A stretch of DNA of 64,000 nucleotides from Candidatus Undinarchaeota archaeon (GCA_964633445.1 CAZWFW010000001.1:6339-70338), one strand, 5' to 3'. Positions 3,325 to 62,570 are shown, numbered from the stretch's first letter. The notes: generated from the letters alone by a model not told the origin. Numbers and translations: made by a program.

Positions 3325-4502
3325 CTTCTGAAAATGAAAAACTTTTTCTTCTTCTTTTTCACTTCCTTCCTTCTCTTTACTTTTTCAATAACTTTGCTAG
3401 CATCTTTGTATGTATTACCTACACCAACGGAATTACCAACCCCTATTAAAATTACGCTCCCCCCTTCACCAACCTCTCTAATTAATTCTAAAATCTTTTC
3501 TCTAGCGGGGTTTATAGATTTTACTATTTTCTTATTCATGGGCTCAATAGCTTCAAAAGCATCCATCTTTACTGCAATGGCATCCAACTCTATATTTCTC
3601 TTGCTTGCAATCTCCTCGATAAATGCCTTGTGATAAAAACCTAGACCACCTATAGCAACACCAACACCGCTAGCTACGCTACCAGTCTCTTCCCCCTCTA
3701 ATTTACTAGCAGCATCTACGGTTATTATTTTCTTAATATTTTTATCTTTCTTCAGAATATCTCTAACAGCATCAGCTATCTCCCCAAGTCTCCCTCCAGG
3801 CCCTTTAGCTCTTATAACATAAACCTTTCTTCCTTCAACCTCCTCTTCGGAGCAAACTATATCCTTTGCTATATCTCTAGCTTCCTTAGATATAAAAGTG
3901 GTAACAATTAGAGGGCCTATGCTATCCCCAATAGGTTCATTTTCAAGAAAAGCCTTTGTGCATTTCAGTTCGGATTTAGCAACTTTCATTATTAATGGCA
4001 TTATCATTTGTAGCTCGGCAAGAAAAAGGGGGTTGTTATGTTTCTTAAACATATATAGGTAGTGTTTAACAACCTTCTTTATGGAGTTTAAGCTCCAAAC
4101 AGCTTTTAAAGCCATGGATATATTCATGATGTCTTCCTCACTGGCCTTGGCATTTCTCAGCAATCTTCTCGTTCCGTCTAGAAAACGATCTTCTGATTGG
4201 TCCAGTATATATTTTAATTTTTTTAATATTCCTGAAGGATCAAGATCTACGGGCTCTATAACAAAGAAATTGAGATAATCATCAAGAAACTTCTTAATGC
4301 TTTTCCTGCTTATACCAAATTTCCTAACTCTTGAGGATATCAAATTTCTACCCTTATTTACCATACCTTCAAGTTCAAGTAAGCTGTTCTCAACTCTGAT
4401 TATCATCTGACGTATAAAAAGCCTTGGTAATACAAAAAGTAGCAACATGAAAAATACTAGTGATAATAACCAATCTTTCCAATCTGTTGGTATTAGCATC
4501 AT
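3309..4502 (-). CDS. Conserved archaeal membrane-anchored protein of unknown function (resembles the DUF1512 family, unverified)
   Basis: 397-aa ORF with one N-terminal TM, a Gly-rich core ([23 protein letters not shown]) and a Lys-rich tail. It overlaps the ABC ATPase start by 16 nt and the TrmJ-like stop by 4 nt. Confidence 0.55.
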
Positions 4503-5197
4503 TCTTCTTTAGCTTTTAATATTTTTAATAATTTTCTTAAAATTCCTAGCATAGTATTTACCTCCCTACCAGTAAGGTTTGCTCTGCCAATAATCCTCTT
4601 AAACATTATTATAGCTTTTCTTCTTTTCTCCTTACTACTAGGAAATTCTACTATTTCTAAAAGTTCTTCAATATATTTAAATAAAACCTCCTTTTCTCTT
4701 TGGGAGGCAAGCCTAAATTCCCTTATTTTCAAGCTGGATAGCTCATAGAGGAAAATAGCAACGGCATGCGACAAATTTAATGTTGGATAATCTCTTGATG
4801 TTGGAATCGTTACCAAAATATCACACAGTTTTATTTCCTCGTTTAGCAAACCAATATCTTCTCTTCCAAACACAATCGCCACTTCTCCTTTGAGCATTTC
4901 CTTTAAATCCTTCAGCTTAATATAACTTCTTAAAAAATTAGAATCGCTTTTTGGGATCTTCGCAGTAGTTCCAATAACGAAGTCAAATTCTTTTATTGCA
5001 TCCTCAAACTTTCTAAAAATTTTAACATTGTTTACCAGCTTATAAGCGTGCTTTGCAACTTTCTTTATTTTTTCATCCTCAAAACTAAATTGGGGGTTAA
5101 CGACTATTATTTTCTTAAAACCAAAATTCATCATAACCCTTAATATTGCTCCAAAATTCTCAGGGTTTTTTGGTTCAACAAGAATTACAGTTATCAT
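4499..5197 (-). CDS. SpoU/TrmH-family RNA 2'-O-methyltransferase (TrmJ-like)
   Basis: The family-typical N-terminus starts at M29 of the track ORF (MITVILVEPKNPENFGAILRVMMNFGF). Also has VFGREDIGL and NLSHAVAIFLYEL. ATG 5197 forms an ATGA overlap with the upstream stop, so I prefer it to 5281. Confidence 0.85.
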   Translation of the reverse strand: MITVILVEPKNPENFGAILRVMMNFGFKKIIVVNPQFSFEDEKIKKVAKHAYKLVNNVKIFRKFEDAIKEFDFVIGTTAKIPKSDSNFLRSYIKLKDLKEMLKGEVAIVFGREDIGLLNEEIKLCDILVTIPTSRDYPTLNLSHAVAIFLYELSSLKIREFRLASQREKEVLFKYIEELLEIVEFPSSKEKRRKAIIMFKRIIGRANLTGREVNTMLGILRKLLKILKAKEE

Positions 5198-5767: not shown

Positions 5768-5923
5768 TTAAACGATTATACCCTCTCTGCGATTCTTTTT
5801 ATTGATCTCTCTGTTCATACGATGTAAACCTCTCCTTACTAGCCACCTTCTAAATTCTTCAAAAGCTTCCTTTTCATATTGCTCATCAATTTTTTCTAGA
5901 ACTTCCTCGATTTCCATAATCAT
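5768..5923 (-). CDS. Possible small charged protein (51 aa)
   Basis: Below the track threshold. My translation is MIMEIEEVLEKIDEQYEKEAFEEFRRWLVRRGLHRMNREINKKNRREGIIV*. GGTGAT lies 5 nt upstream of the ATG. Divergent from hypF. Confidence 0.35.
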   Translation of the reverse strand: MIMEIEEVLEKIDEQYEKEAFEEFRRWLVRRGLHRMNREINKKNRREGIIV

Positions 5924-5998
5924 TTTGATCACCCAAAAGATTAATTAGTTTTAATTAGTTAGCAGTATAGCGCTAGAGTATGTTGCCATTATTTCAAA

Positions 5999-8275
5999 AT
6001 GAAAAACCGCAAAAAAGCAGTCAAAATAATAATTAGGGGAGTTGTTCAAGGCATAGGTTTTAGACCCTTCATTTTCAGAATTGCCAACTCGCTTAATGTT
6101 AAAGGATATGTTAAAAATGTGAAGGGTGGTGTGGAAGTTTATGCTGAAGCCTCTCAAAAGATTTTAGATAGTTTTTTAAATGAAATAATGAGTAAAAAGC
6201 CACCTTTATGCAAAATTGATGAAATCGAAATTAAGAATGTGTCTCTCGCCAATTTCAAGTCTTTTACTATAGAAAAAAGTGGTTTTGAAGATGAACCAGA
6301 GATGGTAATCCCTCCTGATATTGCTATCTGCAATGAATGTGTTAAGGAGCTACGCGATAAAGAAAATAGAAGATTTGGATATTTTTTCATAACATGCACT
6401 TCTTGTGGGCCAAGGTATACCATAATTGAGGATTTGCCTTTCGATAGAAAGAATACCACATTAAAATGTTTTAAATTATGTAAGGAATGTCTTAGGGAAT
6501 ACCTAGATCCCAAGAATAGGAGGTTTCATGCCCAGACAATTGCTTGCGGTAAATGCGGACCAAAGCTGTTTTTGAAAAGTAGCGGTAAGGTTTTGCGTAA
6601 TAATGTTATTAAAAAAGTTGCAAAATTACTGAGTAATGAAGAAGTTGTTGCAATTAAGGGTTTAGGAGGGTATCATCTAGCTGTTAGGGCTGATAGCAAT
6701 TTTGCGGTGCTAAATTTAAGGAAATCACTGAGAAGATCGCAAAAGCCTTTTGCTGTAATGTGTAAGGATGTTAAAACTGCAAAAACGTTTGCAGTAATTA
6801 ACGAAAGTGAGAGAAGGTTGCTAGAATCTTGGCAGAGACCAATAGTTGTTTTGAGAAAAAGCAGTGATTATTGGTTAAGCAAATATGTAGCACCAGGACT
6901 TGATACAATAGGGGTTTTTCTGCCATATACAGCTTTACATTACCTCTTATTTGACCACATAGATTTTCCAATAATCCTAACATCTGCGAATTATCCTAAC
7001 GAGCCTATTGCTAAAGACGAAAATGAAGTAGAGACGTTTGGTTTTGTTGAGCATATTCTTTACTACAATAGAAGAATAGCTAACAGATGCGATGATTCAG
7101 TCGTTAGGATCGTTGCAAATGAAAAAGTCTTTTTGAGAAAAGCAAGAGGTTATGCACCCTGCACGATGAAGTTGATTGGTGTTGACAAGAAAATTCTAAG
7201 TTTGGGCGCGGAACTCAATGTAACCTTTTCAATTTATAAGTATGGCAAGTGTATAACCTCACCGCATATAGGAGACGTTGATAATGAAGCTTGCTTAACA
7301 CATTTGAAGCAAACTTTGTTTAAATTTCTTAGAATGTTAAAAGTCAAACCTGAGATAGTTGTCTGTGACTTACATCCAGGATATCTAACAAGCTCTTTGG
7401 CTGAGGATCTAGCAAGCAAATTTAAGGCAAAGTTAGTTAAAGTTCAGCATCACGAAGCGCATGCATTTTCATTAATGGCTGAAAAAGGGATTAATAATAT
7501 TGTTTGCATTGTTTGCGACGGTTTAGGCTATGGTAATGATGGCAATATATGGGGTGGTGAGGTCTTTGCAATTAAGGGTAAAGAAGTTATAAGAGCTGGT
7601 AGGCTCGAGTACCAACCAATGCCTGGTGGAGAGCTTACAATAAAGTATCCTTTAAGGATGGCTGCAGGAATACTATTCAAAATTTTTGGGGATGATGCTA
7701 AGAGAATCTTAGCTAAATATGAAAACAAATTCAGATATGGTAGAAAGGAAATCACCGCAATTTTAAATCAAGTTATAAATAAGATAAATACTCCTTATAC
7801 AAGTAGCACTGGTAGAATTCTTGATGCGATTTCTGCATTGCTGGGCGTGTGTTATGAAAGAACTTATGAGGGGGAACCAGCAATGAAACTTGAAGCCATT
7901 GCTAAAGGAAGAGATTTGGGTTTTAACTTTAACATTAAAAAAGAAGACAATGCCCATGTTTTAATAACATCTTCAATTATTGAGGAGGTTGCTAATACCA
8001 TCAATCAAAAAAATGCAAAGGATGTAGCATTATCAGCTCATCTAGCATTAGCTAGAGGTTTATTTGAAATTGCTAGGAGAGTATGCAAAAAATATGATAT
8101 TGATAAGATTGGTTTTACTGGAGGCGTCGCTTACAACACTATAATATCTAGCGAGCTCAAAAGACTTTGCAATGAAGAAAATTTTGAGCTTTACTTACAA
8201 ACAAAATATCCTTGTGGAGATGGGGGGATATCCTTAGGTCAAATTTATAGAACATTGTTCTTTAAGGAAATATAA
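5999..8275 (+). CDS. hypF: [NiFe]-hydrogenase maturation carbamoyltransferase HypF
   Basis: Acylphosphatase-like N-terminus (VKIIIRGVVQGIGFRPFI), two paired CxxC zinc-finger motifs (CNEC...CTSCGPRYT; CKEC...CGKCGPK), YrdC-like AIKGLGGYHLAV and a Kae1-like C-terminus. 758 aa is the typical length. Confidence 0.97.
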   Translation: MKNRKKAVKIIIRGVVQGIGFRPFIFRIANSLNVKGYVKNVKGGVEVYAEASQKILDSFLNEIMSKKPPLCKIDEIEIKNVSLANFKSFTIEKSGFEDEPEMVIPPDIAICNECVKELRDKENRRFGYFFITCTSCGPRYTIIEDLPFDRKNTTLKCFKLCKECLREYLDPKNRRFHAQTIACGKCGPKLFLKSSGKVLRNNVIKKVAKLLSNEEVVAIKGLGGYHLAVRADSNFAVLNLRKSLRRSQKPFAVMCKDVKTAKTFAVINESERRLLESWQRPIVVLRKSSDYWLSKYVAPGLDTIGVFLPYTALHYLLFDHIDFPIILTSANYPNEPIAKDENEVETFGFVEHILYYNRRIANRCDDSVVRIVANEKVFLRKARGYAPCTMKLIGVDKKILSLGAELNVTFSIYKYGKCITSPHIGDVDNEACLTHLKQTLFKFLRMLKVKPEIVVCDLHPGYLTSSLAEDLASKFKAKLVKVQHHEAHAFSLMAEKGINNIVCIVCDGLGYGNDGNIWGGEVFAIKGKEVIRAGRLEYQPMPGGELTIKYPLRMAAGILFKIFGDDAKRILAKYENKFRYGRKEITAILNQVINKINTPYTSSTGRILDAISALLGVCYERTYEGEPAMKLEAIAKGRDLGFNFNIKKEDNAHVLITSSIIEEVANTINQKNAKDVALSAHLALARGLFEIARRVCKKYDIDKIGFTGGVAYNTIISSELKRLCNEENFELYLQTKYPCGDGGISLGQIYRTLFFKEI

Positions 8276-33089: not shown

Positions 33090-33110
33090 ATAGTTATTTT
33101 AGGTTTTTTG

Positions 33111-33368
33111 AAAAATTTATCTTCATGTTGTTTGCAAGACCCAATGCGTAAGCGTGGGGATACGCAATGGGAGGCGGGTGGGAAATATTTAAATACTTTG
33201 AAGTTGTATAAACAGTAATCTCGCAACAGCCGTTAAGGCCGGACAGCCCGTGAGGATAACGGGTAGTGGCCTCGTGAACAGGCCTGTGAGGATAAGGGTG
33301 GTAGAAATCCACCAAACTCCTCACGAAGCTCCTTTCGTAAGGGAGGGGCAGTTTACAGCCCTGTTTTT
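33111..33368 (-). ncRNA. G+C-rich structured island 1 (candidate ncRNA or cis-regulatory leader; strand tentative)
   Basis: 36/60 G+C in 33241-33300 versus 17/60 in 33421-33480. Hairpins at 33140-33171, 33268-33284 and 33286-33324. Shares blocks with islands 2 and 3. Oligo-T is present on either strand (33364-33368 on plus; 33111-33115 on minus). The track ORF 33094-33372 is probably spurious. Confidence 0.5.
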
Positions 33369-34004
33369 CCAATATTTCTTGAGAAGCTCTCCAGAAGCAT
33401 ATGCACTAAGAAGTGCGAAAAGTGAAAAATTAACTCTTCTTTCAAAGCTGCCAATTAATTTCACTTCTACAAATTCCTTTCTTTCAAAAGCTTTGACAAG
33501 AATTCTACAAACCTTTCTATTGTTTAAATAACCCTCCAAATAAATAAACTCGTTTTTTAAAATTTTTATAGTGTAGGATGTTTTTTTGATTTTACCCATT
33601 AAAAATCTAAATTCGCTATTCTTTATCAAAAGTTTTGCGAATTGTTTTCTTAGTGAAAGCAATATCGGATTTCCACTCCCACCAAATTCCAAAATAACGT
33701 CCTTTAAAGACTTTTTAGTAGTAAGAATTATTTTACCCTCCAGATATACAGGTATCGAAAAAAGTAGATAATAGGAGGTAGAAACAGCATCCAGCCAGAT
33801 CTCGTAATAACAATGTTTACAGAATAGAAAAAGTGAAAATGAAGATAGAAAATATCCAGGGGAATGAGGAATACCATTTTTAATGAAAGGGAATATTAGA
33901 GCATAGATACATGAATGCAACAAAAATAGATATGTTGCTAAAAATAGTTTAAGCAAACCAAAAATTATAAACAGAGAATCGAGAAGATAAATCAAACTTA
34001 CCAA
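33321..34004 (-). CDS. Hypothetical membrane protein (C-terminal ~16 codons overlap island 1)
   Basis: 227-aa ORF with a hydrophobic N-terminal half and no recognisable motif. It overlaps the 63-aa ORF 33949-34140 in another frame, so this could be two genes or one frameshifted gene. Confidence 0.4.
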   Translation of the reverse strand: MVSLIYLLDSLFIIFGLLKLFLATYLFLLHSCIYALIFPFIKNGIPHSPGYFLSSFSLFLFCKHCYYEIWLDAVSTSYYLLFSIPVYLEGKIILTTKKSLKDVILEFGGSGNPILLSLRKQFAKLLIKNSEFRFLMGKIKKTSYTIKILKNEFIYLEGYLNNRKVCRILVKAFERKEFVEVKLIGSFERRVNFSLFALLSAYASGELLKKYWKNRAVNCPSLTKGAS

Positions 34005-45291: not shown

Positions 45292-45445
45292 AAAAATCTT
45301 ATTATCTTCATGTTACTTGCAAGATCCCAGTAGCCCACTCTTAACGAGAGTGGTATGCGGGGACTGTGAGCTGGAGGGTGTATGAGCTTAGAGCGTAAAG
45401 CTCTGGGTGAATGTCTAAACTTGCAAGCCATGAAAAGATTAAGGA
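45292..45445 (-). ncRNA. G+C-rich structured island 2 (candidate ncRNA or leader; strand tentative)
   Basis: Terminal inverted repeats at 45304-45324 and 45420-45439 around the palindrome cttgcaag. Hairpin 45335-45353. The 5' block is shared with island 1. On the minus strand it ends in T5 (45292-45296). The track ORF 45279-45473 is probably spurious. Confidence 0.45.
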
Positions 45446-62317: not shown

Positions 62318-62493
62318 GTCTGTGAACTACCCACCGTTTTTAATGGGTGGCTTCCCCCAGATAAACACCACCACGGCTGGGGTCGGGCTGTTCACGAGCC
62401 CCGATGCCACCCATCAAAGGTATTTAAATATTTCCCACCTCCTCCCTAATTCACCCACCGATTGAAATCAGGGGTACTCTTAGCGACATTTTT
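62318..62493 (+). ncRNA. G+C-rich structured island 3 (candidate ncRNA or leader of hypC; strand tentative)
   Basis: Hairpin gggct-gttcacg-agccc (62385-62401). Long-range stem 62343-62351/62406-62414. A 33-nt block (62414-62446) is shared with island 1 in inverted orientation. T5 at 62489-62493. Confidence 0.45.
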
Positions 62494-62570
62494 ATGGAAA
62501 TATTTATACTCTGCAAGACATTATTTTAACCTCTCAAATTTAGAAATACAGGGAAGTCAATGAAAAATTT

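Follow-up and report, generated by a model that had tools for sequence, protein, structure and literature searches.

Within the 64,000 nucleotides analysed here from a Candidatus Undinarchaeota archaeon (GCA_964633445.1, CAZWFW010000001.1:6339-70338; hereafter the window, with coordinates counted from its first letter), a G+C-rich island at 33111-33368 separates a hypothetical membrane gene from a gene described as dut-like. What is this island, and what, if anything, is made from it? The original prediction took it for an unannotated non-coding RNA (ncRNA) or a cis-acting leader of the dut-like gene. Homology to complete transposons points elsewhere. The segment 33121-33356 on the + strand is very probably a miniature derivative, lacking an open reading frame (ORF), of an IS200/IS605-family transposon of the TnpB-only (IS1341-type, ISTsi2-like) kind, and it carries an omega-RNA module. 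Its parts and immediate flanks are as follows; here and below, L-numbers are labels of comparison loci.

33121-33356, + strand: whole mini-element (236 bp), located by a two-part blastn match, with ends set from the alignment and from the flanks of other copies
33117-33120, + strand: TTAT left flank, candidate insertion target or transposon-adjacent motif (TAM), shared by all copies with this left end
33121-33139, + strand: left-end terminus CTTCATGTTGTTTGCAAGA, conserved in L035, L084, L128, L132, L135, L136 and a third window element at 45306
33140-33171, + strand: subterminal imperfect palindrome, 10 of 11 pairs, with a hairpin at the same position in other copies
33172-33196, + strand: purine-rich block and promoter-like TFB-recognition element (BRE) and TATA box, GGGAAA-TATTTAAATA; the same block stands before full-length tnpB
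33197-33239, + strand: AT-rich spacer and leader, recognized by a match to the leader of ORF-less copies
33238-33348, + strand: tnpB remnant, about the last 38 codons (..GLVNRPVRIRVVEIHQTPHEAPFVREG), found by tblastn with the TnpB of L035
33240-33356, + strand: putative scaffold of the omega RNA (right-end element RNA, reRNA), equal to the right end, helices P1-P4, matched by covariance model R1
33357-33376, + strand: right flank AGCCCTGTTTTTCCAATATT, the would-be guide by virtue of its place after AGTTYAC, where homology between copies ends

The identification is carried by the two ends of a full-length element in L035, a metagenome-assembled genome (MAG) of Ca. Alkanophaga liquidiphilum. In blastn comparisons, positions 26-129 of the island match L035 4323-4412, which is the left end and promoter of that element, and positions 158-269 match L035 5569-5683, which is the 3′ end of tnpB and the right end. 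The 419-aa ORF lying in L035 matches the Pfam families OrfB_IS605 (3.4e-21) and Cas12f1-like_TNB (2.3e-22), has 2954 homologues at E<=1e-20 that are annotated as RNA-guided endonuclease InsQ/TnpB, and is 80% identical to the orfB product of ISTsi2 from Thermococcus sibiricus. These homologues include proteins of Geoglobus, Alkanophagales, Asgard archaea and thermophilic Firmicutes; Altiarchaeota were not seen among the named top matches of the protein homology search. The window retains the tail of this protein: the remnant ending in GLVNRPVRIRVVEIHQTPHEAPFVREG aligns with residues 382-419 of the L035 TnpB at 63% identity (tblastn, E 5.5e-6). With 236 bp and only this 38-codon tail, the mini-element is too short to encode a transposase or TnpB, and no Pfam domain was found in the scanned window ORFs that overlap it.

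Further copies place the island in a dispersed family. A scan of a genome collection with a 17-mer promoter pattern gave, among the matches listed, mostly chance bacterial sequences and five informative archaeal loci (L035, L055, L078, L084 and L085) that share far more than the 17-mer, and a metagenome scan with a right-end pattern yielded 10 loci. ORF-less copies are present in L128, L130, L131, L132, L135, L136, in partial form in L133, and also in L084, a Thermococci MAG; L127 and L134 hold full-length tnpB copies and L129 a right-end-only fragment. Scans of viral contigs with three patterns returned chance matches or nothing. Altogether, the same family is found at no fewer than five different flanks (>=5) in other genomes and metagenomes.

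The comparison of these copies defines the ends of the element. In 8 of 8 sequences with a left end of this type, the four bases just before it are TTAT, and the sequence farther upstream is unrelated. The eight comprise two window elements and six other loci; L035/L127 and L128/L132 each represent one locus that was sampled twice, which leaves six distinct sites. Every sequence with this left end begins CT(T/C) right after TTAT, and the right end of every copy reads ...AGTTYAC, where homology stops and the flanks diverge. Subterminal palindromes are found at both ends (left, 33140-33171; right, 33328-33349). Terminal inverted repeats (TIRs) are absent, with 6 of 22 positions matching between the termini of the mini-element, and there is no target-site duplication, the right flanks being unrelated and the left flank not repeated. 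By analogy with IS200/IS605 elements (PMC10055086), we infer that TTAT acts as the TAM, and the left hairpin is presumed, on the same analogy, to be the one recognized by TnpA. The element starts directly 3′ of TTAT, 31 nt upstream of the ATG of the dut-like gene (dcd, see below), and its removal in silico joins GAAAAATTTAT to AGCCCTG..., that is, it creates the junction GAAAAATTTAT/AGCCCTGTTTTTCC.

The right half of the island has the properties of an omega-RNA region. We built a covariance model (R1) from seven ORF-less copies and two tnpB 3′ ends, leaving the window sequence out. Run against the 64-kb window, R1 produced a single match, at 33240-33356 on the + strand (77.5 bits, E 3.2e-17), which spans the full length of the model (positions 1-131). 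In L035 and L134 the R1 region ends 6 nt past the tnpB stop codon, at ...AGTTCAC, and the model also detects the right end of L085 (41.6 bits), the parent of a second island in the window. The scaffold at 33240-33356 includes the CGUGAAC hairpin at 33268-33284 and a terminal hairpin with a GUAA loop at 33328-33349, and it ends ...AGTTTAC. An RNAalifold consensus of the window copy and nine others contains 45 pairs, 12 of them with compensatory changes. In a model-based alignment of 17 hits, 97% of the cells are paired and 29 of 41 pairs changed on both sides; none of 500 shuffles reached the observed pairing and covariation values, and sliding the 3′ partners by 1-3 columns left only 40-50% pairing. 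These sequence comparisons identify the structured part as a TnpB omega-RNA region, whose RNA may be used by TnpB.

Weaker R1 matches, of 20-39 bits, occur in L129 (5698-5852 and 496-591), L078 (5623-5738, minus strand) and L127 (24-141); they represent other members of this omega-RNA superfamily, more decayed or more divergent. For the right-end-only fragment in L129, only the last ~45 nt are clearly homologous. The loop CGUGAAC (33273-33279 in island 1 and 62396-62390 in island 2) shows no variation in 10 of 10 aligned island-1 family sequences or in the subfamily of island 2 and L085, while its stem covaries. In the analogous Pyrococcus abyssi sRk52 RNA, the P2 loop is a kink-loop (K-loop) bound by L7Ae (PMC3124441).

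The features that originally set the island apart hold up with small amendments. A recount of the abrupt compositional shift gave exactly the reported values, 36 of 60 G+C at 33241-33300 and 17 of 60 at 33421-33480. The G+C content of 33121-33356 is 50%, a level attained by just 0.03% of 236-nt windows, compared with a window mean of 35.4% (standard deviation 3.6%); in a 100-nt profile the content rises from ~0.30 to 0.55 between 33100 and 33350 and then drops. The three predicted hairpins are all at the stated positions: 33140-33171, CCCAATGCGTA-N10-TACGCAATGGG, has 10 of 11 pairs and one A.A mismatch, and 33286-33324 reads GTGAGGA-TAAG-GGTGG-TAGAAAT-CCACC-AAAC-TCCTCAC. The third, GGCCT-CGTGAAC-AGGCC at 33268-33284, can be formed by either strand. 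The near-duplicated segment is real too, a 13-mer, CC[C/T]GTGAGGATAA, that occurs at 33247 and 33283. Oligo-T runs do lie at both ends, but not one per strand: T6 (33104-33109) and T5 (33363-33367) are both on the + strand, and the minus-strand T run corresponds to A5 at 33111-33115. In folding stability the region exceeds dinucleotide shuffles whichever strand is taken (z = -3.8 for + and -5.0 for -; none of 200 shuffles was as stable), so the folding observation is real and not a product of chance. A sigma-70/terminator scan, a type of scan not applicable to archaea, flagged only the terminal hairpin with its T run.

A separate complementarity involves the repeat. The twice-repeated GUGAGGAUAA (33250-33259 and 33286-33295) is complementary, with one G.U pair, to 33117-33127, which is TTAT plus the left terminus (UUAUCUUCAU), and the minimum-free-energy fold of the whole island pairs GUGAGGAUAA with UUAUCUUCAU. 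Complementarity of this type is present in the L035 element and absent in L084-type copies.

The left half of the island would provide the promoter. The block GGGAAA-TATTTAAATA recurs in the full-length elements, 25 nt before the tnpB ATG in L035 and 20 nt before it in L085. Where an archaeal BRE/TATA promoter drives a leaderless mRNA, a distance of 20-25 nt is to be expected, and the block is predicted to be the tnpB promoter of the parent element. Between promoter and scaffold, 33225-33251 matches the leader of ORF-less L130 and L132 at 92.6% over 27 nt; in L084-type copies this leader contains two GNRA hairpins. The leader is not in the full-length L035, L127 and L134 and occurs only in ORF-less copies, which makes island 1 a member of an ORF-less lineage and not a private deletion. 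The TATA element ATATTTAAATAT (33185-33196, and 62420-62431 in island 2) is a perfect palindrome and could in principle also direct transcription to dcd (island 1) or hypC (island 2), through the left-end hairpin.

We propose the following role for such an element. Judged from the TATA spacing, transcription would start near 33219 and give a + strand RNA of ~140-160 nt, directed away from dcd, in which a guide transcribed from the right flank would come after the omega-RNA scaffold. A cognate TnpB encoded elsewhere in the genome, if present, could load this RNA in trans and could then cut the empty site (TTAT + AGCCCTG...) that excision leaves, so that the element would tend to be retained through recombination. 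To move, it would depend on a Y1 TnpA, likewise in trans, acting on the two subterminal hairpins.

Elements of comparable design have been described as palindrome-associated transposable elements (PATEs), IS605-type transposons lacking the core that were first described in Haloquadratum walsbyi (PMC3119063); they are also found in Geobacillus stearothermophilus and often encode omega RNAs used by TnpB in trans (PMC10055086). Like PATEs, the mini-element has no protein-coding capacity and no TIRs, bears subterminal palindromes at both ends, sits beside a short target oligonucleotide without target duplication, and combines ends homologous to a TnpB element with a C-terminal coding remnant and an omega-RNA region. 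Unlike PATEs, it belongs to a different sequence family and to thermophilic archaea instead of haloarchaea or Geobacillus, and in it a complete tnpB BRE/TATA promoter is fused to the omega-RNA region together with a leader confined to ORF-less copies. The 33121-33356 copy may itself be mobile. It adds a new member to a kind that is already known, PATE-like ORF-less IS200/IS605 elements with an omega RNA.

Omega RNAs lie over the 3′ end of tnpB in ISDra2, in the G. stearothermophilus ISGst elements and, as sense overlapping transcripts (sotRNAs), in archaeal IS1341-type elements (PMC10055086, PMC4615843, PMC12558985). The scaffold in the island likewise covers the tnpB 3′ end, stops at the right-end boundary and forms a covarying multi-helix structure, whose tetraloop hairpin comes shortly before the transposon end, and flanking DNA would supply its guide. 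It differs in having no tnpB attached, so any use must be in trans, and in that its RNA is predicted to be a primary transcript from the left-end promoter, whereas omega RNAs are processed from tnpB mRNA.

A close experimental parallel is found in P. abyssi, where sRk48/sRk52 and sRkB/sRkC, termed transposase-related ncRNAs, come from repeated intergenic loci with similarity to the OrfB 3′ end that are transcribed and bind L7Ae; a BRE/TATA lies ~22 nt before the start, the RNAs comprise a 177/180-nt primary and a 130-nt processed form, and a P0 leader precedes P1-P3 (PMC3124441). The island resembles these loci as a G+C-rich intergenic repeat of an AT-rich hyperthermophile with a BRE/TATA, a leader stem-loop ahead of P1-P3 and similarity to the 3′ end of orphan OrfB genes. 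Sizes are also comparable, at ~180 nt from predicted start to end in L084-type copies and 131 positions in the scaffold. The sRk48/52 RNAs nevertheless belong to another sequence family: CGTGAAC and AGTTCAC are absent from the published alignment and from the other supplementary files, and the right ends in the supplementary alignment read ..CCAGAACGG (PMC3124441). Experiments demonstrated that the Pyrococcus RNAs are expressed and bind L7Ae, whereas the RNA of the island is a prediction.

Several observations weigh against a transposon-derived, guide-producing element. No empty-site allele was recovered, and the interval is rearranged in the closest relative, GCA_054010715.1, whose Dcd and ArsA are 88% identical to those of the window; the insertion event is therefore reconstructed and not observed. 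The alignment behind the covariation values was fitted to the model and includes several close relatives. The window copy scores 77.5 bits, against 113-162 bits in its relatives, and has lost the inner P1 helix together with a portion of P3. The 64-kb window yielded neither tnpB nor tnpA (two TnpB queries in tblastn; Pfam on 20 of 53 ORFs >=90 aa), nor was a Y1_Tnp domain seen among the ten window ORFs of suitable size scanned, so that TnpB and TnpA, if present, would be encoded in another part of the genome. The + strand RNA is itself a prediction, and the T5 run at 33363-33367, which begins 7 nt into the would-be guide, could terminate transcription early and leave a guide of ~7-11 nt.

The low score, the deletions in P1 and P3, the early T5 run and the failure to find tnpB or tnpA in the window would also suit an inert fossil, that is, a decayed TnpB mini-element that is immobile and either untranscribed or a source of RNA that TnpB does not use. 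The tnpB stop codon, mutated from TAG to CAG, fits such decay. We regard this as a substantial possibility, if somewhat short of probable. Against it, the window copy has exactly the promoter block of the full-length L035 element and island 2, it retains its four main helices, with compensatory changes, and its two termini and two subterminal hairpins are undamaged; the analogous P. abyssi loci are also transcribed (PMC3124441). The invariance of the CGUGAAC loop, noted above, and the maintenance of a promoter and a mini-specific leader in an ORF-less lineage might instead reflect exaptation, with the RNA kept for a host role, for example as an L7Ae-bound small RNA, like the P. abyssi analogues that bind L7Ae through a K-loop (PMC3124441), or as the guide of a nuclease-dead TnpB-like regulator. 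The position is not syntenically conserved, however, and the copies, their transposon ends intact, have the character of mobile repeats, which makes exaptation very unlikely. A free-standing structured RNA gene of the cell that is not mobile DNA, the first of the two original readings, could account for a stable fold in a G+C-rich island of an AT-rich genome with a BRE/TATA-like box upstream, and a conserved, covarying RNA structure is indeed present. Yet both halves are homologous to the ends of tnpB elements, coding sequence included, and copies occur at unrelated sites in several phyla and are absent from the closest relative; we consider such a gene highly improbable. Nor does the island match an Rfam family. 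The search proposed with the original prediction (Rfam 15, 4227 models) gave no gathering-level match in the island and two chance-level ones of 14-16 bits at E<=10, its gathering-level matches in the window being three tRNAs, all outside the island; the Rfam check alone would not have resolved the identity of the island. H/ACA and C/D box small RNAs, K-loop motifs, tRNA halves or T-arm-like hairpins, RNase P RNA and signal recognition particle RNA were considered by eye and none fitted, and the homology to TnpB elements makes these cellular candidates moot.

The remaining readings concern the neighbouring genes. The dut-like gene encodes a 163-aa dCTP deaminase (Dcd) whose best named relatives are in Candidatus Altiarchaeota, and a cis-acting leader or riboswitch of dcd would suit an island only 31 nt upstream of its ATG with a TATA palindrome able, in principle, to fire toward it. 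It is nonetheless scarcely credible: the polarity of the element is opposite to that of dcd, copies stand beside unrelated genes at unrelated loci, and a TATA-like ATAAATTT that is older than the insertion lies on the flank, nearer dcd. The island is also missing upstream of dcd in both relatives compared. In GCA_054010715.1 (L001) two TPR-like genes on the other strand, with no G+C island, lie between a RecJ-like DHH gene and dcd, and in L003, whose Dcd is 63% identical, only ~80 nt precede dcd; the island is therefore not conserved at the dcd locus. A 92-aa ORF that overlaps the island is almost certainly not a real gene, as the original prediction had suspected. It is uninterrupted, and in L137, a second sample of the same organism (99.7% identical), gene calls split the region into 113-aa and 92-aa genes. 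Against this, it runs antisense to the element, and its two halves lie in different frames in L084, L128 and L136 and are separated by 1.1 kb in L035. The final 8 codons of the 92-aa ORF (INFSKNLK and the stop) are the displaced C terminus of the upstream ORF. Insertion of the element replaced the last 8 codons of that 227-aa ORF; once the element is removed in silico, the upstream ORF ends ...KNRAINFSKNLK followed by a stop, 4 nt before the dcd ATG, which explains the tail of the 92-aa ORF. The two frames are:

33094-33372, minus strand: 92-aa ORF, an artefact by frame comparison across copies and by its tail, displaced from the upstream ORF
33321-34004, with a displaced tail at 33094-33120, minus strand: upstream 227-aa ORF, no Pfam match

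Reading the island as a transposon-derived guide-RNA module accounts for an unannotated G+C island and for two others in the window, and it spares the annotation three mistaken entries: a gene of 92 aa, a new ncRNA of the cell and a riboswitch of dcd. It further adds an omega-RNA family that is absent from Rfam, with a covariance model, ends (TTAT/CT..... AGTTYAC) and a candidate TAM now defined, which may be of use in mining thermostable pairs of TnpB and omega RNA. It is possible, though on the doubtful side, that the ORF-less copies are a self-propagating, guide-RNA-only transposon lineage and not random deletion products. Such a lineage would have spread across archaeal phyla in hot sediments (this Altiarchaeota-like genome, Thermococci, Thermoplasmata and Alkanophaga), keeping a strong BRE/TATA promoter, gaining a 5′ leader with two GNRA hairpins and preserving its scaffold by compensatory evolution, and it would parasitise the TnpB and TnpA of other elements to secure its own retention. 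If promoter-bearing ORF-less copies are indeed expressed, they would be archaeal guide RNAs that hitch-hike on TnpB in trans. To our knowledge, hitch-hiking of this kind has been raised for bacterial PATEs and is little documented.

A second island in the window has the same architecture in another TnpB subfamily.

About 62320-62508, minus strand: island 2, ORF-less, assigned by blastn to L085

Its positions 53-144 match L085 4391-4481, the left end and promoter (83%, blastn), and its positions 146-241 match L085 5645-5741, the tnpB 3′ end and right end (88%, blastn). L085 is also from Ca. Alkanophaga liquidiphilum and contains a 408-aa ORF with a Cas12f1-like_TNB domain (2.8e-18). Self-BLAST of the window revealed an exact 20-mer, GGTGGGAAATATTTAAATAC, common to island 1 (33177-33196) and island 2 (62439-62420, minus strand). 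The two islands share a hairpin with a compensatory change (GGGCU-CGUGAAC-AGCCC in island 2, GGCCU-CGUGAAC-AGGCC in island 1) and a similar 3′ motif, AGTTYACAG; model R1 does not match island 2. The right end of island 2, AGTTCAC (62328-62322), lies 13 nt from the stop codon of a 344-aa ORF. Island 2 is absent at the syntenic place in the 88% relative (L004), where HEPN/nucleotidyltransferase gene pairs lie upstream of hypC.

These pairs, HEPN/HepT with nucleotidyltransferase (toxin-antitoxin-like), occupy 4040-4755, 5912-6729 and 7008-7672 in the hypC/arsA area of L004, at the position where the window has island 2 and the 344-aa secreted or membrane protein. The ArsA-family ATPase encoded nearby has its closest relatives in Aenigmarchaeota. 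Together with the Altiarchaeota relatives of Dcd, this points to a host that is an uncultivated, AT-rich archaeon from the broad vicinity of these groups.

A third G+C-rich element, at 45305-45436 on the + strand, begins after TTAT with CTTCATGTTACTTGCAAGATCCC, the left-end terminus of island 1. Its ends are able to form an imperfect inverted repeat (..CTTGCAAGCCATGAAAAG), and a hairpin with a GUAA loop lies within it. It has neither the TATA block nor an R1 match, and no similar sequence was found among the loci compared.

Other samples of the same organism add two observations on the island-1 region. In three independent assemblies (L138, L139 and L140, from the European Nucleotide Archive and two Logan runs), contigs end inside the island, at ~33290-33299; breaks within the omega-RNA region fit a sequence that is repeated in the community. 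L137 carries an extra 164-bp classical miniature inverted-repeat transposable element (MITE) at 1867-2030, equivalent to ~34050 in the window, between the RecJ-like gene and island 1, with TIRs TATTGTGTTGCA/TGCAACACAGTA and an 8-bp duplication, GAATTAAG. The extra MITE marks the interval between the RecJ-like gene and island 1 as a hot spot of mobile DNA and casts doubt on the 'membrane gene' ORFs there.

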